64,000 nt of DNA from Podarcis melisellensis (lineage: Eukaryota). Below are positions 17,587-35,100 of this stretch, piece by piece. The DNA is taken from NCBI GenBank assembly GCA_964234715.1, contig OZ174283.1. One strand, 5' to 3'. The number at the start of each line of letters is the position of its first letter. Within the stretch, counting starts at the first letter, position 1. The notes beneath the pieces are model-generated. The model did not search any database and was not told the origin of the DNA. It worked only from the letters and a program-made list of their open reading frames with translations. The translations under genes and the position numbers were made by a program.

Positions 17587-19409
17587 AGCTACATGGCTGA
17601 GTGGATAGCTCATCGTTATAACAATTCCACCAACAAGAAGTATTAGCTCTGCTTCTACACGCACAAGTATCTGTGTCAACCAGCGGATTGTTTGGCTTAA
17701 CAGTGAGCACAGGGTTGCTCCCACCAAATCCTGCATATTCTACTCTTGTCAAGGTAAGAGGTGGGGCTGATGGATAGTAATAGGAGGCTGGTACACTTCA
17801 GAATGATGTTCTACCTGCTGCAGTTGCAAATCACTCAGGACTGTTTAGCACAGTTTCATAGTAGCATTATTCAAACATTCATCAGAATGTGCATATAGGT
17901 GAATTGCATCGCTCTTTCAGTTTGGTGTACTGAAAGAGTATACACACATTCAAGCTGTGCATGTATATGATCTGTCAACCCAAACAAATAACTTTTGAAG
18001 AGGCATGATTTCCCTGAGTGCATGGCTTGTATATGCACACAAATTGCATGTAGGCCCATAAGCAATACCAGGACCCCTAACCCTGGCCTATACAAGTTTG
18101 GCAAAATGGAGGAAAGAAGTGGTGCCCATAGACTACATACACAAAAAACCCTTTTATATATTATGCTGACAATGCATGGAGGCTACAACATATGCAATCC
18201 CATCCCTCCCCCTTATATGTGTTGAGATGAATATCTGAATAGCACTATGGATATATCTGGAGGTTCTCAAATCTAGAATTGCTTCATCACTTCAGCTGCC
18301 TGCTTTGGTACTGATATCACTTTTTGCCTGTATTGCTCAGTGTCTGGTGGTGGTTGCAAAGTTCCAGAAGAAATGTATCTAATCTAAAGTTAAAACAAAG
18401 TATGGAAAAGGTGGGGATCACAACTGATTTAAAGTTCTGTCACTGAATTCTATAACTGATCCCACTATTCATAATCTGAGTGTCTTAAACTTGTTTCACA
18501 GCATCTTGATTGGGTTTTCTCAGATGTCAAATATCATAAAGCAAGAAAGTGTCTTTCTGAGAGTTAAAGACAGACAAATTTATTGTGGCATAAGCTTCTA
18601 AGGTGCCTCGAGGCTTTTTGTTGTTTTCGGTGCAACAGACTTAACACGGCTACCCCTCTGGAAATTACATAAAATGTCAGCTATCAAAAACTATACAAAT
18701 TACATGTCAGCTGTAAATCTATATTGTATTGTGTTTGTGGCAGTGTAGCTTCTGGCATCCATTGGCTGAGCAGGTGTGATGGTATGGAATGCTCGTGAAC
18801 ATTCCAAATGCCCAGGCAGCAAAGCCAACAGAATGTTTTTGGTCCAGCTTCTGTGAGGGACTGGAAAAGCATAAATCAGGTGAGGACTAGGAAGAGTTCC
18901 TTGGAACATTAAAGGGGGGAGGTGCCTTGATGAAAGAAGAAGAGATCAGTTACACTAGGGATTGAGAGGCAGTGTGATGGGGACTGAATGGATGGATAAC
19001 TGACTAACCAGCCAACTGCAGGCATCTACTACCATTAAATATAATATAAATATATCTTTGCCTGTTAAATATAATCTAGGGTTTTTTTAAAAGTGAATTA
19101 GTCCTTTAAACTGAATGTAAATAGGGGGACCATGCTTCTACTTGTGATGTTGCCACAGATTATATGGCTGAATGACATGTGAAACTTTTCTCTACTGGAA
19201 GATCTTGCCAAACTGAGTGTTCTTGTTTTTCTTCTTCCTTTGATTTAAAGCCTTGACAGATCTGGGGCACTATGATTCAGAACAAACACTAATTCACACA
19301 TGAACTTGTGAAACATTTTATGAGAGTAAAAGCTGAACACAAGCTCTTTCCATCAGCTGGAACTTGACAGTCCTAAGTATTGGCATTAGAAAGCACCCCC
19401 TATCTAAAG

Positions 19410-19835
19410 TGTCAGGGAACTGCCATCAGTGCCGGAGGGAGGGAGCAAAATCCAGAGAGATTCCAGAGAGCATCCCGAGATTGGGAGAGGCAGCCCAAAT
19501 TCTGGGGAAGAGAATCAGCGTAGCACCAGTGGAGAAGGTGGGCAGATGGGGGAAGTGGCGAGGCGGTCCCATGACTCCTTGCCGGGGACCAGCGGGGAGA
19601 GTAGGGGTCCTCCGCTGCCTATGCCCTCCTTGCACAGAAGGCTTTCGTGCAGAGAGAGTAGGAGGAGACTAGGCGTCAAAGAGCTTCTTTGCTGGAAGAA
19701 GTTTAAGAAACGCCCACTGACGGATTCTGCCAGCGATTGAGGCAGCCACGGGTGAGTGGCAGAAAAGGTTCACTCAAGCAACCCAGCCAGGTGTTTGCAC
19801 TAGCTTACGCACGAGCAACCCCTAGAACCATTACA
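19410..19835. mobile_element. Solo LTR-like element, copy A
   Basis: TGTCAGGGAACTG...ACCATTACA; perfect 5-bp TSD TAAAG; homologous to 34568-34979. Confidence 0.85.
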
Positions 19836-20782
19836 TAAAGTTATACTTCCGCAAATTTTATTCCGAAGAGGTCCTCATTATCAAGATACGGATAAGTTCA
19901 AAGCACCAGGCTTTTTCTGTATTCAGAAGAGGAACAATATTCGTCATGTTCCAACATCACCGCTGCACTTCCTACCATAACTCATTTCATCAGGCAAGGG
20001 CTGTGACTTCAGGAGAACCAATTAGAGACTAATTGCTTTAAACACGGTCATACTTCATTGTGCAGCCTTAACAGTGAATCAATACACAATGGTTCTGCAT
20101 CAACTCAATCAAGATTCTCTTGGGAGGAAAGTTTTGGGCACCATCCTGTATCCACTCAAGAACTTCTCACTGACTAATAAAACCAAAACAAGCACATAAC
20201 CATATTTCTCCTCACAGGCATGACAGGGCCTAAGAAAAAGCATGCACAGGAATTATGCTTTAGTTTTCATTGGATGTCCACAAATTCCAGTGTTATAAGG
20301 GGGGGTGGGAGAGAAAAAAAGCTTTTCTCTATTTTCTTTCTCCATATCATGGCCCACAAGATTCACATACTCTTCCCATGCTCTCCTCCCCCTCCCCCCC
20401 CCAGCTCGGGCCCCGTAATCCAGTTCTGTGTTCTGTATTCCTCATTACATCTGAAACAGAGAAATATGGTTTAATGTTGGGTTACCAGCCAGGATCTTAA
20501 ACCTGGTTTAAACTATGGTTTAAGATCCTAGGATTTAGCATTTCAGACACAATCTCTGTCTTAGAGATTATGATGGCATGGAAGAAGAGAAAAGAAATGA
20601 AATGAGACAGATCTGGACCAATGCTTGTTCAGAATTTAGGAAGCTGGAATCAATGCATACAAACCAGCCCATGCTCAATGGTGTTTAGGCTACAGTTTGT
20701 AATTTGACTTCAAACATTTCTGTATTGTGGTAGCAGCATCCATGCACATAACTACCTTGATTAACTTTTACATAATATTATA

Positions 20783-21023
20783 CAGTGGTACCTCGGTTTT
20801 CGAACGTCTAAGAAGTGGGACGTTTTGGTTTTCGAACCCCGAAAACCCAGAAGTAATTGGTTCTATTTTAGAATGCTTTTTGGAAGTCAAACGGCTTCCG
20901 GGAAGGTTTTTTCAATTTGCTCCATTGACTTTGCAGACTGCCCTTTGCGCCTCAGTTGTCAGATGTTTCAGAAATCAAATGGTCTTCCAGAAGAGATTAC
21001 TTTTGACAACCGAGGTACCACTG
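20783..21023. mobile_element. Tc1/mariner-pogo MITE
   Basis: TIR CAGTGGTACCTCGGTT; TA TSD on both sides. A degenerate relative lies at 27065-27314. Confidence 0.88.
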
Positions 21024-21043
21024 TACACATTAACCAGGTAGGT

Positions 21044-21837
21044 NNNNNNNNNNNNNNNNNNNNNNNNNNNNNNNNNNNNNNNNNNNNNNNNNNNNNNNNN
21101 NNNNNNNNNNNNNNNNNNNNNNNNNNNNNNNNNNNNNNNNNNNNNNNNNNNNNNNNNNNNNNNNNNNNNNNNNNNNNNNNNNNNNNNNNNNNNNNNNNNN
21201 NNNNNNNNNNNNNNNNNNNNNNNNNNNNNNNNNNNNNNNNNNNNNNNNNNNNNNNNNNNNNNNNNNNNNNNNNNNNNNNNNNNNNNNNNNNNNNNNNNNN
21301 NNNNNNNNNNNNNNNNNNNNNNNNNNNNNNNNNNNNNNNNNNNNNNNNNNNNNNNNNNNNNNNNNNNNNNNNNNNNNNNNNNNNNNNNNNNNNNNNNNNN
21401 NNNNNNNNNNNNNNNNNNNNNNNNNNNNNNNNNNNNNNNNNNNNNNNNNNNNNNNNNNNNNNNNNNNNNNNNNNNNNNNNNNNNNNNNNNNNNNNNNNNN
21501 NNNNNNNNNNNNNNNNNNNNNNNNNNNNNNNNNNNNNNNNNNNNNNNNNNNNNNNNNNNNNNNNNNNNNNNNNNNNNNNNNNNNNNNNNNNNNNNNNNNN
21601 NNNNNNNNNNNNNNNNNNNNNNNNNNNNNNNNNNNNNNNNNNNNNNNNNNNNNNNNNNNNNNNNNNNNNNNNNNNNNNNNNNNNNNNNNNNNNNNNNNNN
21701 NNNNNNNNNNNNNNNNNNNNNNNNNNNNNNNNNNNNNNNNNNNNNNNNNNNNNNNNNNNNNNNNNNNNNNNNNNNNNNNNNNNNNNNNNNNNNNNNNNNN
21801 NNNNNNNNNNNNNNNNNNNNNNNNNNNNNNNNNNNNN
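21044..21837. other. Assembly gap
   Basis: Run of N. Confidence 1.
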
Positions 21838-22247
21838 TTGGCTTTCTGTCAGAAGAAACTGCAAGGCAGTAAAAATGTTCAGTAAACCCCTTTTATCGTT
21901 TTAATGGAAACTTTAACAATGAATGAGGAAAGGTCTAATCTCTATTCAAAAAGCTGATAAGACAAGTGTGAGCACCTCATATCCTCAGAGTAGTGAAGTA
22001 ATCAAAGTTTCCTAGTACCATGGCAAATATATATAATTTGTAATAAATATTGCACTTCCTCCACAATGCAGCAGGAATAGAAGGGAAATATGGTATACAT
22101 TTCCTTCTTCCTGACTGTAGTACATCTGCAGACTGCAGTACCTTGTATTGCTTTGATTGCAAAAGAAAGGGAAAAGGGAAATTGCACAGATTTTGGAGTG
22201 CAAATAATATATACGAGTAGCATAAATGAAATTATAACAAGAAGGAA

Positions 22248-22615
22248 GGTAAAGGTAAAGGTAAAGGTACCCCTGCCCGTACGGGCCAGTCTTGCCAGAC
22301 TCTGGGGTTGTGCGCCCATCTCACTCAAGAGGCCAGGGGCCAGCGCTGTCCGGAGACACTTCCGGGTCACATGGCCAGCGTGACAAAGCTGCATCTGGCG
22401 AGCCAGAGCTGCACACGGAAACGCCGTTTACCTTCCCGCTGGTAAGCGGTCCCTATTTATCTACTTGCACCCGGGGGTGCTTTCGAACTGCTAGGTTGGC
22501 AGGCGCTGGGACCGAGCAGCGGGAGCGCACCCCGCCGCAGGGATTCGAACTGCCGACCTTTCGATCGGCAAGTCCTAGGCGTTGAGGCTTTAACCCACAG
22601 CGCCACCTGCGTCCC
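22248..22615 (-). mobile_element. Sauria SINE (CpG-rich variant subfamily)
   Basis: (ACCTTT)n tail; TSD TAACAAGAA(G/C)GAA. Confidence 0.9.
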
Positions 22616-22716
22616 TAACAAGAACGAAACATGCATCAAAATGTAGATTCATGTGTGCAGAAATAAATGCATACAAAAATGCATCTCCATATAAAAACTG
22701 CACATATTATTGGCAG

Positions 22717-23280
22717 ACAGTGGCGTTGCAAGGGGGTGGGGGGCGGTGCGTCCCAGAGGTCATGTCTGGAGACAAGAAGGCACCCCATGTGGTGCTCGCC
22801 CCGCCGCCCCCGGGTGAGGCGATGCAAGCAGCCATCGCGCCACTGCAGCCACATGTGGAGGATCCTTCGTTTGCAGCTGCGGCCATGAGCAGAGGATCCT
22901 GCCACCGTCCATACGCCGTTCGAGCAGCGCCAGCGGCAAACCGCTACGTACAACGCATGCGTGGCATCGCATACATGCGCTCTACGTAGCGACGCCACAC
23001 ACACACACTGTACATAGCGGTTTGCTGCTGGCGCCGCTCGAGTGCTATACAGACGGTGGTGGGATCCTGCCACCACCGCTACAGCCGCAAGCGGAGGATC
23101 CCACCACCATCCGTATGGTGCTCAGGCGGTGCCGGAGGCAAACCGCTACATACAACACATGTGCAGTGTCACACGCATATGCTGTGCATAGTGACCCCAC
23201 ACATGCACCCTACATAACGGTGCCACGCGTGTGTCATACATAGCGGTGCAACATGTGTGCAGCTGGCGGTTTGCCTCACC
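22717..23280. repeat. CpG-rich foldback/tandem repeat of unknown family, preceded by a small CAGTGGCG...CGCCACTG MITE
   Basis: Inverted arms 22893-22951 and 23009-23067; a third arm copy from 23096. Confidence 0.7.
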
Positions 23281-23949
23281 CCAGCTGTTGGTTAGCATCC
23301 GTTCACCCGTTGGCAGGACCCTTATTGCTTTAGCATGTGCCTAGTTGAAAGGTTGAAAGACATCGGAAGAACCCTGGAAAGCCAATGTGCACCAGAATGG
23401 GCAATACTGGCCTACATGGACCAACAGAATGAGTTTATGAGATGCAGCACTTCTTTTGGGTTGGGGAGGCAGAAGACATGGCAGCCAAATTGCTAAAGCT
23501 TGCAAATCCACGGAACAGCCCTGTTGCATAAGGCCTATTAGCCAATCTAGCCCAGCATCCTGTCCTCATTCCAGCCAACCAGATGCCTGCCAGTAGGGAA
23601 GGATGGTTTTGGTTTGGGTTTCCTCATTTTCCCTATTTTCAATTCAATTCCGCAACAATTTATGATTTAAAAAAATAATAATCCTCAACTATATTTAGCA
23701 GCATTTTAGTGAGAATTTCTGGTAATCAGTGCTTTTTGAGGAGGGTACTCAAGGGAACTTTTTTCCAAATGTTAAAAGTTTGGCATTTACTGTAACAGCA
23801 ATGTATATGGTGAGTACTGGCACCTTTTTTCCTTTCCTTTTTTTTTAAGCACTGCTCATAACATGGCAGGCAGTTTTGACTCATGAACACGTTTCTGTGA
23901 GCAATTTTTCTTAATATAATGCATTTTGCCTATTATTTTCATAAATTTA

Positions 23950-24206
23950 TAGTGGTACCTCAGGTTACGGACACTTCAGATACAGGTACTTCAGATTACA
24001 GACACTTCAGGTTACAGACTCCACTAACCCAGAAATAGTAACTCGGATTAAGAACTTTGCTTCAGGATGAGAACAGAAATCGCATGGCGGTGGCACGGCA
24101 GCAGTGGGAGGCCCCGTAAGCTAAAGTGGTACCTCAGGTTAAGAACAGTTTCAAGTTAAGAACAGACCTCCAGAACAAATTAACTTCTTAACCCGAGGTA
24201 CCACTG
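23950..24206. mobile_element. Tc1/mariner-pogo MITE
   Basis: AGTGGTACCTC TIRs; TA flanks; internal short tandem CTTCAG-TACAG units. Confidence 0.88.
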
Positions 24207-24833
24207 TATTCATTTTTATGACCCTTTCCCTTAATTATGTGCATTTTTGTTATATGTGCTTGGTTGGAGAACTGCGCTGCAAAATTCAGATAAATGTGAA
24301 TCTCAAAGGCTGTGTTCTGATTCTCATATTGTTTTGGAAAATGTGAATTGGGTAGGTTTTCGTTTAAATACAACTGGTATTCAAAGACATACTGCCTCCA
24401 CCAGCAGAGAGAGTGAATAGCCATTGTGGCTAGTAGCCACTGATAAGTCTATTTCTCCCCTGGATTTGTCTAATCCTCTTTTAAAGCTATCCAAGGCGTG
24501 GTTTGTTTGCCATCATTACAGCTTGTGGGAGCAAAATAAGAACATGAAAAATGAGAGTGGATCTCCCTCTCTCTGCTCTCAGAGAGCGAGGCCCCCAAAA
24601 TCCTGTGGCCCTTGGGGCACCTTCCCAGGGACCACAGTATTGTGTTCAAAGGCAGTTATGTATGACCATGCAGAAAAGCAATCCATCCTTAAATCATGTC
24701 CCAGATCCATAAGACCATAAGATCCATAAGACCATAAGAGACCCACCGGGTCAGACTAAGAGTCAGGTGCTTCCGGAGAGCCTGCAAGTAGGACATGAGT
24801 GCAATAACACTCCAGGCTGAATATCTAATACAT

Positions 24834-24988
24834 ACGTATTTTTCTGTGTATAAGACGCCCCCTATTTTTTGGAACTCAAAATTAAGAAAATGCACTATAT
24901 ATACACTATCCATGTATAAGTCACCCCCTTATTTTAAACTTGAAAATTTTAGGGGAAAAATATAGTCTTATACACGGAAAAATATGGT
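24834..24988. mobile_element. pogo/Tigger-like MITE
   Basis: TIR CGTATTTTTCTGTGTATAAGAC / GTCTTATACACGGAAAAATATG. Confidence 0.75.
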
Positions 24989-25209
24989 ATATGGAACTTT
25001 TAACACCTGCAGCCTCCCCAATTCAGCTTAATGTATTAGTGGAGCAGCATTCCTCGCTGAAGTTTATGTAAAGTTCCTACGGCAGTAGGAGCAATGCACA
25101 CAAAGAGGTTCCATATTCAGAAGGAACCACTAGACTAGGACACGCCAAGGCATGCAATTCGTCAAACTCTGTGGCATCAGCATTGCCTGATCGATTTGCG
25201 CGGTAATTT

Positions 25210-25284
25210 TGCAACAAAAATCAAAGCAAAAACTTGAAATAGCTACTGTAATGTTAAAATGGTTAATTTTTGTTCTCTTTTAAT
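25210..25284 (-). terminator. Probable SLC39A8 polyadenylation signal (ATTAAA 25279-25284) with U/GU-rich downstream element; 3' UTR about 0.78 kb
   Basis: Minus-strand ATTAAA followed ~45 nt later by GTTTTTGCTTTGATTTTTGTTG; the interval from the stop codon is AT-rich and repeat-free. Confidence 0.55.
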
Positions 25285-26042
25285 ATATATATCTATATAT
25301 AAGGCCAGAGCCTTTTAAGCATGATGCACATAATAAAGTTGAAATTTTAACATCACTTAATAAAAAAATGTGCTTCTCATAATAAAGCCCACAGTACCCT
25401 TGAAAAAGAGTGATCAAAAGCACTAAGTGGTATAATTAATCCAGTGTTAATTGGTAATTGGAATCTTTGCATTATTTATGCAAATGTACTAAAGCAAGTA
25501 TAATTTTTTTAAAAAAATAATAATAATCTGCCCCCAAAGGAGGAAAAGTCTAAAGCTATTTTGAAACCATTTGTATCGCAGTTAGAAATGTGGCCATGGG
25601 TCTTCTGTAAAAAGTTCCTTGTAAACGAAATCGTATTTGTTTTAGCCAGAATCATCTTGCAGATGTCCCTGCTGCTGGATGCTTCTTAAAGTGTATGCAA
25701 TACTTTCTGTATACAGTGGTATAGGTGACTTCTCAATTAAAACTACAAAGGTGGCAATCCAGGGCTCTTTGTGATGAATAGGAAGTTGTGTGCTGAAGTT
25801 AACGGCACAATTCTTGAAGGCAGAGGAAATCCCACAGGTACTGGAGTGCCCACATGTTTAAGTCTTTATGCGGCACAAGTGATTATTATCATGCTGACAC
25901 AAAAACCAAAAGTATTCGTTCCAACGAAAATGGGATGTCAGATCAAATCCTTTATAACTTCCAAAGTCCCTTTTATGGAGTTCAAGAGTTCTTCCATTTT
26001 TAATTTACTAAGTGTCTTCTTTATCACATCTCCAACATTACA

Positions 26043-26192
26043 TTATTCCAGTTCAATTTCTCCTGCGTACACCGTGATCAGCAGAATCGCAGCAAACCCT
26101 GTGAGCAACCCAGCATTTTGGATCAGGAAGAAGACTAGATCTGTTTTTCTTCCGGTCACTTTTTCTCTCAGCATGTCATTCATCTCTGGGAA
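26043..26192 (-). CDS. SLC39A8: SLC39A8 coding exon 8 (TM8, stop)
   Basis: tcctctag|TTC acceptor; [52 protein letters not shown]. Confidence 0.97.
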
Positions 26193-29100
26193 CTAGAGGA
26201 GGCAGAAGGAAGGAAGTTTTTAGGTAAGTGTTGCCATCTGGTGGAACAACATGCTACATTAGAATTTGCTTTTTTTTAAATGCATGCATTGATTTATGTT
26301 ACATTACTGTATAAGATTGGGTTGGGTTCTTAAGCTGCTGGAGCGGCAACAATCTGGGTGTTGTGTCCAAGTGATTACTTCACCAAGAAAGGAACACTGG
26401 AAATTGCTTCCTCCTCAGCTGAGCCTCTCTTTGTAAGTTTCAGGGATGGACTCACATACATCTTGTGCAATGCCCATTCACTTAAATGGAGCTTGTGCAA
26501 GAAGGCTTCTCAGTAGTTTAAGTCTATGCAATGCACAGGCAGCAATAAGTCCCTTTCATATGGGTGGGCTAAGCAACAGAGAGGGGCAGACCTGATAGCA
26601 GCTGTAGTTTGCAAGTAGGAAGCACTGCTTCAGGACAATCAACCAGCAGATGCAAACAGATGTTTGCTAATTGGCTAGTAGCACTGTCATGGGCTGCTGC
26701 TGTGGCTGGAGGGGGCAACTAGCCTGCCCAGTGCTGACCCAGGCATCTCCTGTTTCCCTTGCTGTTTCCTGCCCGCAACTGCTAAGAGACCAGATTATTC
26801 CTCTTCAGGATAGCTGTGTGTTCTACTTTAGAGGGCAGCCTTTTGTTCTGAAGGGGTGTAAGTCCTCCATCTATTTGAAAGGCTGTCCAGAAGTTTGGTT
26901 TAAAGCTATGGAAATATTGAAAGTAATGGAGAGGTTGAGGAACCTTGAAGTTCCCAATCAACTGTCAGCACCATCAGATCAGTGGACTGAGCAGACACAC
27001 AGGTCACCTGGGGTATTCCCCACTACAGTGAAAAATTCATCCCTCTGCTGAAGCATAGCAAATGCAGCCATACCTTGGATCCCAAACACCTTGCGAGTTG
27101 AACGTTTTGGCTCCCGAATGCCACAAACCCAGAAGTGAGTGTTCTGGTATGCAGACGTTCTTTGGAACCCAAAGGTCCAACGTGACTTCCGCAGCTTCCG
27201 ATTGGCTACAGGAGCTTCCTGCAGCCAATTGGAAGCCGCGCTTTCGTTTCTGAACATTTTGGAAGTTGAACCGACTTCTGGAATGGATTCTGTTCGACTT
27301 CCAAGGTACCATTGTCCTAGCTTTCCAATCTCTAGACTGCCCTGTGTGGTGAAGATAGCATGGAATAAATATATATCATAAACTATCACAGTCTCTTGGC
27401 AAAGGGTGTGAACAACATTTAAATAAAAATAAAAATGTTGTGTTGTCGATGGCTGTGATGTGCCCTGTATCTAAGGGTGAAGAGTGGATAATAAAAGTCA
27501 GTGTGTTGTAAAGGTTAGAGCACTGGGACTCTGGGAGACCAAGGGTACAAATCTCTACTCAGCCATGAAAATTGCAGGGCAACCTTGGGCGTGTCACTGT
27601 CTCTCAGCCTAACCTACCTCACAGGTTTGTTGTGAGCATAAAATGGGGGAAAGGAGAAGCATGTACACCGCCTTCAGCTCTTTGGAAGAAAAAGTGGCAT
27701 ATAAATGTAGTGAAAAAATAATAATAAAATCAAATATTATAATAAAGTTCAATGCTATCTTACTTTTTCTACAAAATCGGGGGAACTGATTTCTTCCAGA
27801 AGAAAAATGGAGCTGTGAATTCTAGAACTTTAAGACATTTTGCACTAGATTCTGTGATCAAAATAAGTACAGTTTACCAAGACACATCAGCCAGAAATTC
27901 AAACAGAAGAAAAAAAGAACACACTGCACTGAAAAAGCCCACAGAAGCCACTTCTAACCTGACAGGTAAATGCATCTCTACCACTAACTTGCCAGTTTAT
28001 CATTGCAGCACACTCTCCTTGGAAATTAATTCAAAGACACTTCTGCTTCTGCAAAGTGCTGACAAACACAGATCAACAAAATTGCTGTGCTGGCTGCTTA
28101 TCAAAGATGAGGTAGGATGGAGTTCAAAGTTTTCAAAGCCCTCTGAAACTTAAGTAATACAAAAACTAGCTCTCTGGAAACACCTTTCCAATCCCAACAC
28201 AATTTAATTTTCTAGGGTTGGAACCTCAGAAGGAGAAGGAAGCCATTAGTGCTATCATCTCCCACTGCAGCTAAAATTTCTTCCACAAAGCTAATAATAA
28301 GGATGAACTAAGCCACATTCATTGTTCAATAACAATATTTTAAAAATCCCTCTTTAGGAGCATGAGAAGAGGCTTGCTGGGTCAGAGTAAAGGCCCACCA
28401 TGTCCAGCATCATGTCCGCACAGTGGCCAATCATATACACCCATGTGAAGCTCTCAAGCAGGCCAGGCACTCTTTTCTACTTTTGATTTTGGTACTCAGA
28501 GGCATACTGCCTCTACCTTCACAACACAGGGAGTAAAATACAACAACACGGTCCTCCTTGTCAGTAACAGGTCAAAGTAATGGACAGCTATATCCATATC
28601 TAGCTTGAAGAGACCTTGCAAACCAGGGAAGAGTGGGTGGGTTGCTCATCTATTGCCCGAACTATCAGGGTCCATCCAGAATAATGGAGCCGGGAGACAC
28701 CAAGTCCCAATTCAGACAGATTCACAACCATGAATTTATTCAGCAACCTTGGAGCCAAGCTAGATGTTCCCTTGAGACAGCTACATATCTTGTTTTTCCT
28801 AAAATAATTACAGGCACAAGGACTCCAGTTCTTAAAAGGAAGGCAGTGAACAAGAGGGTGGACTTAATCCTTCTCTTGCATGCCACAGCTGGGAAAGGGG
28901 GCAGGCCAAGGGATTAAAAAATCATTAAAAATCAATATGACAGACCATGGACCACCTAGATGAAGCTCACAGACCACTGATGGTCCATGATCTGCAGTTT
29001 GGGAACCCCCACTTTATATGTTTTTAATGTAACATTTGTTTTTCTTATTGGTGACCTTAAATCAGCTGACCATTGTTTTCCCTAGAGACTTGTGGCTAAT

Positions 29101-32100
29101 CTAGTCCTTGGTGAAAACAAGGCCTGTTGGTACATGAGTAGCACCTGTCTGCATCACCCACATTCCCTTTGGGTCTATTCTCAACCCCAAACAGCTTCTT
29201 GGAGGGCTTCTGAACATTGTAGCTATGACTCACCCACTTCAGCTGGCTTTAAGGCTCAAAAGCACTCTCAGCTCTGAATGCTGACCCTTCCTAGGAGGGG
29301 TCAACAGTTAACGTTCGCTTGAGATCAATCAAGCACCTCCTTCAGCATCCTTGAGATTCAAAGTCTTTTCTCTCCCACCCCCTTGAGATGCAAAGTCTTG
29401 CATAGGCATATCCACTTTGATCAATCAACACACAATGATCATTGTCCAATGAAGAGATAACTGTAAACAAAGCTTTGTTCTCAGTATACTACTGGAAATA
29501 ACCATTTCAGGATTCCCCATGTTCTGTTAACAGTACAGTCCTATGCATGTTTACTCAGAAGCAAGCTACACTGGATTCAGTGGGGTCAATTCCAGTGTAA
29601 GTGTGCATAGGGTTGCAATCTTAAATTGTGTGTTGATTGGCTTCCTTAGGGAATCTGAGGAAATATGCCCAGTGGCCATCAGGTCATCCCTTGATGTTTT
29701 CACTGTACATGACAGAATCATTGTTTTTACTCAGGCTGCAGCTTTTCAGGGCATTTTTCCCTCTGAAGGAAAAGCCAAGTTGGTTGGTAACCCCTATTCC
29801 ACAAGCAGACATCAGCTGGAACCACAGTGAGTCTTAGGCCCCATCAGCACAATATATTTAAAGCAGTATTTATACCACTTTAAACTGCCATTGCTTCCCC
29901 AATGAATCATGGAAACTGTAGATTGTTACGGGTGCTGAAAATTGTTAGGAGACCCTGTATTCCCCACACAGAGCCAGAATTCCCAGAGCTCACTGCAAAA
30001 GGGAATTGATTTTATGTGACTCTGGGAATTGTAGCTCTGTGAAGGGAATAGTGATCTCCTAACAACTCACAGCACCCTTAACAAACAGGATTGCAGGAAA
30101 GGGGAGCAATAGGGGTGTAATATTGCTTGAAATAGAGATATATTTAAACATCCCCAGAATCGATAGACATTGCAGATGTTTTCTGAATGTGCTGGACACA
30201 GTAGAATATATTATTTTCTACTGTCTATTGTACAACCAGCTACACAAAGGCATGCTATTCCCCCTTTTTGGATAGTCTAACATCACAGCACAATGAAAAT
30301 ATCAGATTCTATCTGTCTGACATTAACTGCAAGGGTGGCTGAGTTTCTATCGATAGTATCTTTCAGAGTGGTGAATGGCACTATTTAGCAGGAAAAAAAC
30401 TCCAATGAAAATCCTCGTTATTACATATTTTTACATGGCTGTTTATTTGTATATAGTTTAATTTTTTACTTATGGATGTTTTATGATGGCCTATTATATT
30501 TGTAATGCCTAATAAAGGTTTGGCGAAGTAAGTAAGAAATATAGAGTACAGACTGGGCCTTACTTCAATACTGGTGGTGGGAAAGCATGTTCCATTGCTC
30601 CTGAAGGTGACATGCTAGCTCAGAGGGCATAGGCCAGTCCATCACTTTGCAGGAGCAAAATGGCCAGTTGGTTCAAGAGGATTTGAGGGGCGGGATCCTG
30701 CCACCCCCCTCCAGCACCTGCTGCCCGAGGCAGTTGACTCCCTCTGCCTAGTGGTAGGGCAAGCCCTGGGTGCTTTCAGGGATGATGGCTGAAGCACTTT
30801 GTCATTCAGCCCCCAGATGAGTCTTTCTTCAAAGAACCTGCCTACTAGTGAAGGGAAGGAGAGCACCCTTCGCTTGAACACCAATTCCCACTACATGTGG
30901 TCAGTTGCTATTGCATGATGGCAGCCACCATGTGAAACAATTCAAACTTAACTTGTTTAAACTGAGTTTAATACTGTCTTTTTAAATGTTGTAACCCGCC
31001 CTGGGACCTTGTGGTGGATAAGAAATCGAATTAATAAGAACAACATGCTTCTACTTGGCACTCTTGACACATCATCTAGTCCAGGGTTCTTCAACATTGG
31101 GTTCCTTGTTCCCATCATCCCTGATCATAGGCTAATGTGGTTAGGGATTATGGGAGTTGTAGTTGAGCAACAGCTACAGACTCAAGGTTGCATAACACTG
31201 ACTAGTCCTTCCACACATGATGTAGCTATTAAGGCTGTAGAACTAAGGTAATAAAATGCTAGACTGTACCATTCCAGAATGCAGGTGGGAGGTAATATTA
31301 AATATAAAAAGCTTCCTACCTATAGAAACACAGGAGAACTCTGCTAAAGTTTTCTCAAAGATGCACATAATTTTCTCTATGTAGAAACAAAAAAAATTCA
31401 TTCCAGTAGCACCTTAAAGACCAACTAAGTCAGTTCTTGGTATGAGCTTTCGTGTGCATGCACACTTCTTCAGATACCTGAATACTCGTATCTGAAGAAG
31501 TGTGCATGCACACGAAAGCTCATACCAAGAACTGACTTAGTTGGTCTTTAAGGTGCTAGTGGAAGGAATTTTTTTTTGTTTTGACTATGGCAGACCAACA
31601 CGGCTACCTATCTGTAACTGGAACAATGGAAGGCACCACATTGAGCCGCATGAAATGGAAGTCCAGGTATCTGAAGAAGTGTGCATGCACACGAAAGCTC
31701 ATACTAAGAACTGACTTAGTTGGTCTTTAAGGTGCTACTGGAAGGAATTTTTTTTGTTTTGACTATGGCAGACCAACACGGCTACCTATCTGTAACTGGA
31801 TCTATGTAGAAAGTTTGTTTTCTATGGGGGACTATTCAGAAATATGAGTCCTCCTGCTTGCATTCTGAATCCTACCACTTCGCCCTGCTTAAACTGTAAA
31901 TCAGCTTGTAATGAGCAAGTGAGAGATGGAAGAGAGAAGCAAGAGTTCTAACAAATCCTACCTGTTTCTAGACAGAGAGGAACAGGGTAGAATTCAGCAG
32001 AAAAGCAGGAGTCTGTACTGAGCATTCACACACATCATTTACATTTTGTTCAGACACAACATTAACGGTTCCGGTCTAGACACCTACAGACAGAGAGATT

Positions 32101-35100
32101 AGAAAGGTAGACAGAGAAACCTATCACCTATTGGCTTTAAAACAAGGGTGTAAACATGGTAATACTGAAAAGAGTCAGAGAGATAGACAGCAATGGTAGT
32201 TTCCTAGCTGGCCCTTTGCCCTTAGCAGAGAGAAGAGGTTCCAATCACAGAATCACAGAACTGTAGAGTTGCAAGGGACCCCAATGGTCATCTAGCACAA
32301 CCCCTTGCAATGCAGAAATAGAAACCAACAGAGCTATATTCCTCTTTTATGCAGAAAGATGCCTATCCAAAGGAAGGAAGAGCAAACACTGGACTCTCTG
32401 AATGCACAGTGACCTTTGTACTGGGTTTGTTCATATGTCTCTATAATTTGGAGGCAAAAACAACTCTCAAAAAATAAGTCCTCTCCATCCTAGTCACTGC
32501 TTTCTCCACTCATCCTTTCCCATTACTGATCTTCTGTTTTGTTCTGGCAACGTTGCACATGTGACTCTTGTTGCAACAATAAAGGTCAGGTCTTCTGACT
32601 GCCGTTTAGCTATCTGGCTTCTTAGCCGAATATAAGAATTGTGGTTCCATGAGGATAAATGGTCTGATTCATACATACGCGTAGTATTCATACAATATAG
32701 TAGCAGCTCACCATATCTGCCAGGGAAATGTATAGGAACATGCCTCCAGCGATTGCAAAGATAATGTTTGGAGCAAAGTTGTTGCCCACTACTATACCGA
32801 AAGCTAGTCCAACATAGCAGGAGCATGCTGATATGAAATTGAAAAACAAGGCCTGCCGAGTGCTCATTCCTGCATTAAGAAGGATGACAAAATCCCCTGG
32901 AAAAAGAAAAGCAGGGAAATGGTCAACAAGCAATATTATCATTATTGTTATACATTCCACACACACACACCCCACTCCCAACAAGAGAATTAAAAAGACA
33001 TGGGTAGTGCGTATGAAAATTATAGTGACACCATCATTTCATTTTTCCATTTCAGTACGGCAGAACACTTGTTGCTTGTCTCTTGTTTGATGAGAACTCT
33101 CTTAATGCATTCATCTAACAGCTAGCTGAGTTAATGGAAAACATCTTACCCAGTTCGTGAGGAAACTCTTCACATAAGATTGCTATAGATGTGCTAATTC
33201 CTTGAAGTAGGGAAAGGGTGAAAGAAGCACCGATGGCTAGCCCATCAATGAAGTTATGCAAAGCATCGCTCAGCGTGATCATCCAAGCAATTGTGCCAAT
33301 CTCTGACAGTGCAGGTCCCCTGAAACATTTACACGAGTTGCTTTCGGTTTCTTCCTTCTGTAGATGACAAAATTACAGAAAAATGAAACAAAGTCCTTTC
33401 TCTCCACAGAGAGCAAATATTACATAGGAAGCTGTAGCCCTGTTGAATTACAGTTTTGCCTAAAAGGCCTAAGATTGCAATCCCAACTTCACTTAAAGGT
33501 AAAGGTAAAGGGACCCCTGTCCATTAGGTCCAGTCGTGGCTGACTCTGGGGTTGTGGCGCTCATATGGCCAGCATGACTAAGCCGCTTCTGGCAAACCAG
33601 AGCAGCGCACGGAAACGCCGTTTACCTTCCCGCCAGAGCAGTACCTATTTATCTACTTGTACTTTGACCTGCTTTCGAACTACTAGGTTGGCAGGAACAG
33701 GGACCGAGCAACAGGAGCTCACCCCATCGCGGGGATTCGAACCGTCGACTTTTTGATCAGCAAGTCCTAGGCTCTGTGGTTTAACCCACAGTGCCACCTG
33801 TGTCCCTCAACTTCACTTACCTGGGGTAAAACCCAATTAAATCCAATAGGACTTACTTTCAAGTGGACATGGTTAAGATTGCAACCCAAGTCACTATAAG
33901 TCAGATCATGGCTACTTTTTTGTTTTTTGCAGTCTCCATACAGTGGCATTCAAATGGAAGTGGTTTCTCCAAAGGAGGTCAACATATGATGGACTCTGAT
34001 GCTGCCCTCATGTTTCCAAGGATGCAAAAACATTATTTGTACGATGTGGCTGCTGTAAGAATCCACAACATCTTAGATCCCTTCAGGTGACCTAGTTTCT
34101 CATGAATTTTATGGCATGTCTATTTTGTTTGCTTATTTTTTTAAAAAAAAATTACCCACCCTTCATTCCAAGTAGCCCAAGAATGGGGTACAAAAACACA
34201 GCTTTAAAACCAACAGTAACACCCATTGCCACTATAAAATGGGAGCAAATAAAAATCAATAAGCGGCAGCCGGTACAGAGATGTACTATTTCAAGACTAG
34301 GTCTGAAAACTCAAACATTACCAATGCCTAAGTGCAAATCCACACCCCACTTTGAGTAAAAAATGGAGGATGCTTGAATGGGTCTAAAAGAGGATTAGAC
34401 AAATTCATGGAGGATTAGCTTCAGTCGGTACAGCACGAGTCTCTTAATCTCAGGGCTGTGGGTTCAAGCCTCATGTTGGGCAAAAGATTCCTGCATTGCA
34501 GGGGGTTGGACTAGATGACCCGAGTAGTCCATTCGAACTCTACAATTCTATTATCCTATAAGGCTATTGTCAGGGAACTGACATCAGAGCGAGAGGCGGA
34601 GGCAGGGCTCCAGAGCGATGCCAGAGAGGGGACCAGCAGGGGGGAAGGAATTCAGCGCAACACCAGTAGAGAAGGGAGGGAGATGGAGGAATTGGAGACG
34701 GGTCTCCAAGACCCTGCATCAGAGACCAGTGGAGAGAGCGCTGGCACACCCCTGCCTTCCCCTTACTTGCGCAGACGAGTTCCGCGCAGGGAAAATAGGA
34801 GGAGACTTGGGGTCAAACAGCTCTTATGCTGGAAAAGGTTCAAGAAACGCCCACTGACAGATTCTGCAAGCGACTGACCGGCCACGGAGTGTGGGCTGGC
34901 AGCCAAGGCATGGTGAACCAGGCAATCGAACACCACTAGCAGGCAACTTACGCACAAGTAACCCCTTACAACCATTACAGCTATCAACAGGAATAACCCT
35001 GATGGCTATGGTCTACCTCCACTGTTGGGAGCCAGTATGCTTCTGAATACCACAGGAGCTTAGAGTGCTGTGGCATTCAGGTCCTGCTTGTGGGCTTCTC

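Follow-up and report, generated by a model that had tools for sequence, protein, structure and literature searches.

The window analyzed here, a 64,000-nucleotide stretch of the Podarcis melisellensis genome (assembly GCA_964234715.1, contig OZ174283.1), carries two solo long terminal repeats (LTRs) on the + strand. LTR 1 lies at 19410..19835 (426 nt), has TG...CA ends, and is flanked by the target-site duplication (TSD) TAAAG at 19405-19409 and 19836-19840. LTR 2 lies at 34568..34979 (412 nt), between two copies of the TSD GCTAT (34563-34567 and 34980-34984). An earlier reading of the letters alone (the sequence-only reading) had taken the two for independent insertions with different 5-bp TSDs, and both duplications were verified. 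The LTRs are about 71% identical to each other over their first 340 to 360 nt, and they belong to an older (LTR 1; nearest copies 92 to 94% identical) and a younger (LTR 2; nearest copies 97 to 99% identical) sub-lineage of a Ty3/Gypsy chromovirus. Both are almost certainly solo LTRs of a high-copy lacertid element of this kind, the pol frame of which reads through into U3.

In each LTR, one frame is open from the second base to a shared TGA. This U3-encoded end of the pol/integrase frame comprises 109 codons plus TGA in LTR 1 (19411..19740, + strand, stop at 19738-19740) and 102 codons plus TGA in LTR 2 (34569..34877, + strand, stop at 34875-34877); the 110 and 103 codons counted earlier include the stop. 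The 21-nt length difference is made up of a 6-nt and a 15-nt gap, each in frame, so that the frame is preserved as had been proposed. Toward its end, the frame encodes a conserved basic block (19633..19716 and 34770..34853, both +) made of an Arg-rich stretch, V-K-x-L-L-C-W, and a distal Lys/Arg cluster, with the LCW codons at 19687-19695 and 34824-34832. The block is followed by an 11-nt self-primer (19716..19726 and 34853..34863, both +). We also verified that the two copies share no in-frame ATG (codons 46 and 71 in one, codon 39 in the other) and that neither contains AATAAA, which is likewise missing from the LTR clan to which they belong. The window further contains a ZIP zinc-transporter gene, presumably SLC39A8-like, on the minus strand at 26040-54648, with exons near 26.1, 32.8, 41.6, and 54.1 to 54.6 kb. 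LTR 2 sits antisense within an intron of this gene, and LTR 1 lies about 6 kb past its last coding exon. Many short and long interspersed elements (SINEs and LINEs) and repeats resembling miniature inverted-repeat transposable elements (MITEs) occupy its introns.

The parent element was traced through LTR copies lacking a TSD. Downstream of 5' LTR copies we found gag, a zinc knuckle, and protease; upstream of 3' LTR copies we found an integrase core, an SH3/GPY-F domain, a chromodomain, an acidic tail, and a polypurine tract (PPT). This arrangement fixes the + orientation of the LTRs and identifies the parent as a Ty3/Gypsy chromovirus, two points that the sequence-only reading had left undecided. 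The chromodomain matched Pfam PF00385 with E values of 1.5e-11 and 3.4e-11. The order protease, reverse transcriptase, RNase H, integrase (PR-RT-RH-IN) was seen with Pfam in the homolog P0001, the tail of which is 83% identical. Podarcis muralis is the label on the nearest pol proteins, and the nearest solved chain is Ty3 Gag-Pol.

The integrase-chromodomain frame extends 100 to 109 codons past the PPT into U3. Of 49 fetched 3' ends, 36 carry the chromodomain in the frame of the LTR; in 7 decayed ones it is out of frame, and in the other 6 no chromodomain occurs within 600 nt. The frame from chromodomain to LTR stop was fully open in 27 of 35. In one copy (L059), the integrase core, GPY/F, chromodomain, tail, and LTR all lie in one frame with a single stop within the copy. 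Two automatic UniRef models of wall-lizard pol, P0001 and P0003, terminate in the same LTR-encoded peptide, so the read-through is already present, unremarked, in public annotation. Of the two origins considered earlier, a pol/integrase read-through or a separate accessory open reading frame (ORF), the first thus accounts for the frame.

The family is large. First-look searches of the genome gave 1,928 and 2,747 candidates for the two LTR copies, and a degenerate pattern of the peptide gave 2,872 exact matches (control 0). Pattern matches to PPT-LTR junctions numbered 1,845 (control 9), and those to LTR-primer-site junctions numbered 1,595 (control 0). Paired LTRs of the same element differed at 0 to 1 sites in 13 of 13 cases; part of the family is very young, and its insertion map should therefore lie close to the primary targeting pattern. 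Insertions of the clan are found on many contigs and at varied target sites. In one sub-lineage with 2,075 LTR matches, most of them form pairs about 5 kb apart that differ at 0 to 1 sites, which points to a very recent burst. Separately, contig C19 holds most of the 69 best integrase matches, and several loci (L192, L195, and L198) share a truncated 3' LTR and its flank; this points to a W-like chromosome in which repeats accumulate and segments are amplified. At one locus (L130:2325-2743), an LTR copy is repeated on the opposite strand about 1 kb away with identical flanks, an inverted duplication.

Two bases downstream of the 5' LTR, full-length copies carry 11 nt complementary to the LTR's own 11 nt at the P-L-T/S-D-S codons. 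Of 32 rows, two of which are one locus, 25 match exactly, and the complement exists as five co-varying versions; in five of the mismatched rows, nt 11 is the sole difference. The self-primer of LTR 2 differs from that of LTR 1 by one base, and the primer-binding site of its sub-lineage carries the compensatory change. No tRNA-type primer site was seen at this position, which the LTR's own 11 nt account for. Tf1 is described as using its first 11 bases as the primer, with the cut falling between bases 11 and 12 (PMC7175516), and self-priming as a mark of the Tf1/sushi group (10.1101/2022.12.06.519325, PMC6317226, PMC4600332). On these sequence features, the parent chromovirus is of the self-priming Tf1/sushi type. 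Among the 100 young LTRs listed, nt 11 was the only variable one of 8 free positions, and the change at nt 11 was present in both LTRs of 4 elements, as expected if errors at the strand-transfer junction leave a trace of that junction and of the cut in the genome. The transcript would start at the self-primer (19716 and 34853), which marks the putative U3/R border, and would be cut after nt 11 as in Tf1.

With such a start, nearly the whole frame would belong to U3, and the only place for its translation would be the 3' end of full-length genomic RNA. The 3' U3 of a retroelement templates both new LTRs, so that solo LTRs inherit the coding signature passively. They would not express the frame, since the transcript start falls inside its last codons; the solo copies are probably fossils that make no peptide.

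The sequence-only reading had proposed purifying selection from the last 29 codons of the two LTRs, which differ by 11 synonymous and 3 non-synonymous codons. We reproduced these counts: the ratio of non-synonymous to synonymous differences per site (pN/pS) is 0.10, with a binomial P of 2.3e-5 for a window picked post hoc. The comparison was extended to the 123 of 148 distinct LTR copies that are open to the shared stop. These form 15 groups, up to 47% apart, with lineage frame lengths of 100, 101, 102, and 109 codons, and the distances from the stop to the LTR end vary by single bases. Frequent frameshifts in young copies, looked for as a sign against selection, were not found. A codon model was fitted to 14 real representatives, one single-copy group being excluded, with the self-primer left out of the 28-codon basic block. 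The resulting dN/dS (omega) was 0.69 in the linker, 0.20 in a Ser/Thr/Pro-rich middle, and 0.093 in the basic block (p 4e-26 against 1). The integrase core and the chromodomain gave 0.074 and 0.114, respectively, in 10 copies (10 of 11 picked copies were kept in the tail and integrase analysis; L100 was filtered out). Conversely, private (singleton) mutations in inserted copies were near neutral, with an overall ratio of 0.72 and one of 0.81 for the block (166 non-synonymous and 74 synonymous changes). The low omega is therefore not explained by mutation bias. Since the codon pattern of the two copies holds across 14 sub-lineages, it is more than chance, and subfamilies do not approach the value of 1 that a lack of selection would give.

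Neither another frame nor an RNA structure was found behind the third-position bias. By frame, net pN/pS was 0.25 in +1, 0.44 in its antisense shadow, and 1.04 to 1.84 in the remaining four; we rejected the other frames, the shadow because its signal is weaker and because two lineages have a stop in it over a longer block. No shared RNA fold was found in the basic block (z scores of -0.06, 0.71, -2.20, and -0.84, with differing structures), and conserved RNA structure was rejected on these grounds as the cause of its constraint. Within the block, third positions differ threefold more than second positions (0.40 versus 0.13), and net pS is 0.48. Together, these analyses make selection on the terminal basic block at the protein level very probable.

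Two other accounts of the frame must be weighed against the coding reading. The conserved block could chiefly be the U3 proximal promoter, at about -80 to -1, with the open frame a tolerated overlap. The block does abut the presumed start on its upstream side, a rare TTA codon is retained near -29 in most lineages, and the first five codons of the frame, at the att end of the element, are invariant as DNA. However, a constraint on DNA does not fit the excess of third- over second-position differences and the high synonymous divergence just described, nor the omega of the block, and the Leu codon itself is CTT, CTA, TTA, or TTG depending on the lineage. We consider this explanation very unlikely. 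Still less probable is an accessory ORF of the nef or sag type, expressed from a spliced RNA or one that starts internally, or else a host-available peptide made by the solo LTRs. The in-frame ATGs within each LTR would allow it, but they differ between the copies, the frame runs unbroken from integrase, inserted copies show near-neutral singleton changes, and 25 of the 148 LTR copies are broken. Given the continuity with integrase, such an ORF is not needed, and we retain selection on an integrase extension as the explanation of the block.

What the basic end does was approached through its sequence and a structure model. In the model, only the chromodomain folds confidently, and the rest is of low confidence. 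The linker is left unfolded, in agreement with its relaxed omega and with the disordered linker proposed earlier. A weak, low-confidence helix covers V-K-E-L-L-C-W-K-R-F, with a predicted local distance difference test (pLDDT) score of about 55 over V-K-E-L-L-C-W. A classical bipartite nuclear localization signal (NLS) consists of two basic residues, a spacer of 10 to 12 residues, and 3 of 5 basic residues. This pattern fits all 14 lineages of the clan to which the window's LTRs belong, and Ty1 integrase offers a precedent with a bipartite NLS at its C-terminus (PMC7459421). The basic end is a candidate importin-binding or DNA/nucleosome-binding helix, and it is rather likely to act as a nuclear-import or chromatin-contact signal of integrase. 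Searches of Pfam, PDB sequences, and the ESM Atlas with the LTR peptide or the tail named nothing except the chromodomain.

Further upstream, between the chromodomain and the PPT, the tail carries two tandem units, each consisting of aromatic-x-x-x-F, an acidic Ser/Thr linker of 8 to 9 residues, and FxGF. The units sit about 110 to 20 codons upstream of the 3' LTR (L059, L092, L102, L184-L192, L199-L201). Among 40 3' ends, 31 have two units, 6 have one, and 3 have none; the pattern, defined post hoc, was matched by 1 of 21,000 shuffles. FxGF units are also kept in an older sister clan and in distant relatives with unalignable flanks (P0128, P0129, and P0134), with a similar one in P0143. The model shows the region as disordered. 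TND-interacting motifs, located in disordered regions, are described as a short hydrophobic helix, an acidic Ser/Thr linker of 8 to 16 residues, and an FxGF that is essential for binding to LEDGF and HRP2 (PMC9987994), with the consensus S/E-x-F-x-G-F (PMC7337902) or D/E-x-E-x-F-x-G-F (PMC8022399). The lizard genome carries LEDGF and HRP2-like IBD exons, and one LEDGF exon shows no difference from Podarcis muralis records. We tentatively predict that the FxGF units are LEDGF/HRP2-binding motifs.

The chromodomain lacks the three-aromatic cage of type I (H3K9me-reading) chromodomains. Judged against P0138 and P0151, all 10 copies have a non-aromatic residue or His at cage positions 1 and 3, and P0003 keeps the first Tyr. 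This loss of the first and third aromatics corresponds to the type II state as defined in PMC3059260. A cage-less chromodomain, a partly LTR-encoded tail with two FxGF motifs, and a putative nuclear-entry helix raise the possibility, to which we give somewhat less than even weight, that the lizard lineage swapped heterochromatin reading for host-motif mimicry. The motifs would then be a candidate tether to H3K36me3 gene bodies, convergent with HIV-1 though by way of a motif borrowed from the cell. The whole tail of about 250 residues may be a disordered string of short motifs routing the integration complex. Its two acidic FxGF units are candidate LEDGF/HRP2 tethers, its Ser/Thr-rich stretch may hold phosphorylation sites, and its last part is the basic end.

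The best overall explanation, which we hold likely, is a read-through chromovirus whose terminal basic block is kept by protein selection as an import or chromatin signal. Several observations weigh against parts of it. Our sampling, by best hits and pattern searches, is skewed to intact copies. The bipartite pattern is present in only 3 of 14 copies of the older sister clan, and P0149 and P0191 lack it, while the Arg-rich stretch and LCW persist. Most of the sister clan is without the second basic cluster, so what stays constant is not a classical bipartite NLS; the NLS-like motif proposed earlier stands as a pattern throughout the window's clan, with nuclear import as its predicted role. TTA encodes the Leu of LCW in 8 of 14 rows for the window's clan and 13 of 14 for the sister clan, about 29 nt upstream of the presumed start, so promoter DNA may add part of the constraint on the block. 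Omega in the FxGF motifs (0.22 and 0.13) reveals no motif-specific constraint over the residues between them (0.17), and the youngest lineage has M/L-E-G-F at motif 1.

The main rival to nuclear import is that the basic/LCW end serves targeting or assembly through a partner of its own, or that the protease frees it as a separate piece. LCW and the Arg-rich stretch outlive the distal basic cluster across clans; the distant P0134 likewise retains L-L-C-W with basic flanks, and the predicted helix covers these residues. There are precedents: what the LTR encodes in CRM group A is described as a targeting motif (PMC3059260), and Ty1 has a targeting motif nested in its NLS linker (PMC7459421). Conversely, the family, structure, and atlas matches name no partner, and the scatter of the clan's insertions over contigs and target sites does not favor one. 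On balance, we regard a distinct LCW-dependent partner as rather unlikely, and it is compatible with the explanation favored above.

The older sister LTR clan (L169-L183, L199-L202, L207, L208, L213, and L214) has 8,548 candidates in the same genome. Its LTRs are about 450 nt long, with perfect 7-nt inverted ends, AATAAA in R, and the same read-through peptide. The link from integrase through chromodomain and PPT to the LTR was seen in 3 of 4 loci. The self-primer complement has 1 to 3 mismatches in 4 real 5' LTRs among 12 loci, a set in which the primer-site pattern gives 8 chance matches. A search aimed at longer relatives of P0134, a distant tail, was negative, which is weak evidence.

Reading of pol through into the 3' LTR is already described for the plant chromoviruses CRM group A and Bingo. 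A literature search that did not extend to repeat databases, supplements, and subscription papers brought up neither LTR read-through in a vertebrate chromovirus nor an FxGF/IBD-binding motif in a retrotransposon integrase. The read-through explains the coding signature across thousands of lizard solo LTRs and extends the arrangement of the plant chromoviruses to vertebrates. If the FxGF motifs do bind LEDGF/HRP2, a retrotransposon would use the lentiviral chromatin tether by a different, mimicry-based route, which would offer a testable reason for the accumulation of mobile DNA in squamate genes.

Among known systems, the lizard element resembles the Tf1/sushi group (Tf1, sushi-ichi, and the V-clade): it shares the CCHC-knuckle Gag and the order PR-RT-RH-IN-chromodomain (10.1101/2022.12.06.519325, PMC7175516, PMC6317226), as well as TG...CA LTRs and an 11-nt self-primer in place of a tRNA site. 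To this plan it adds a post-chromodomain tail of about 200 residues, half of it in U3, which ends across the self-primer. The related plant Tcn1 clade mostly keeps the cage (PMC6317226), whereas the lizard chromodomain is without the first and third aromatics. With plant CRM group A and sugar-beet Bingo it shares a chromovirus pol frame that enters the 3' LTR; in CRM, the LTR-coded CR motif is presented as a conserved targeting part (PMC3059260, PMC3605345). In contrast, the lizard element is vertebrate and self-priming, has its chromodomain upstream of the PPT and copies on many contigs, and its LTR peptide matches no Pfam family. An identity with CRM group A was rejected, as the replacement by a CR motif, tRNA-Met priming, and a plant host are all lacking. 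Ty1 integrase also has a short basic C-terminal signal with linear targeting motifs nearby, namely, a bipartite NLS with a nested AC40-binding motif (PMC7459421). However, Ty1 is a Ty1/Copia element, its NLS has a 29-residue linker and is not LTR-encoded, and the likeness seen is one of arrangement. Finally, the FxGF units resemble the IBD-binding motifs of MLL1, JPO2, POGZ, IWS1, and DPF3a in their helix, acidic linker, and FxGF, but here the candidate binding motifs form part of the tail of a retrotransposon integrase and precede the LTR. For its contact with the same LEDGF domain, HIV integrase uses a folded surface and not an FxGF motif.

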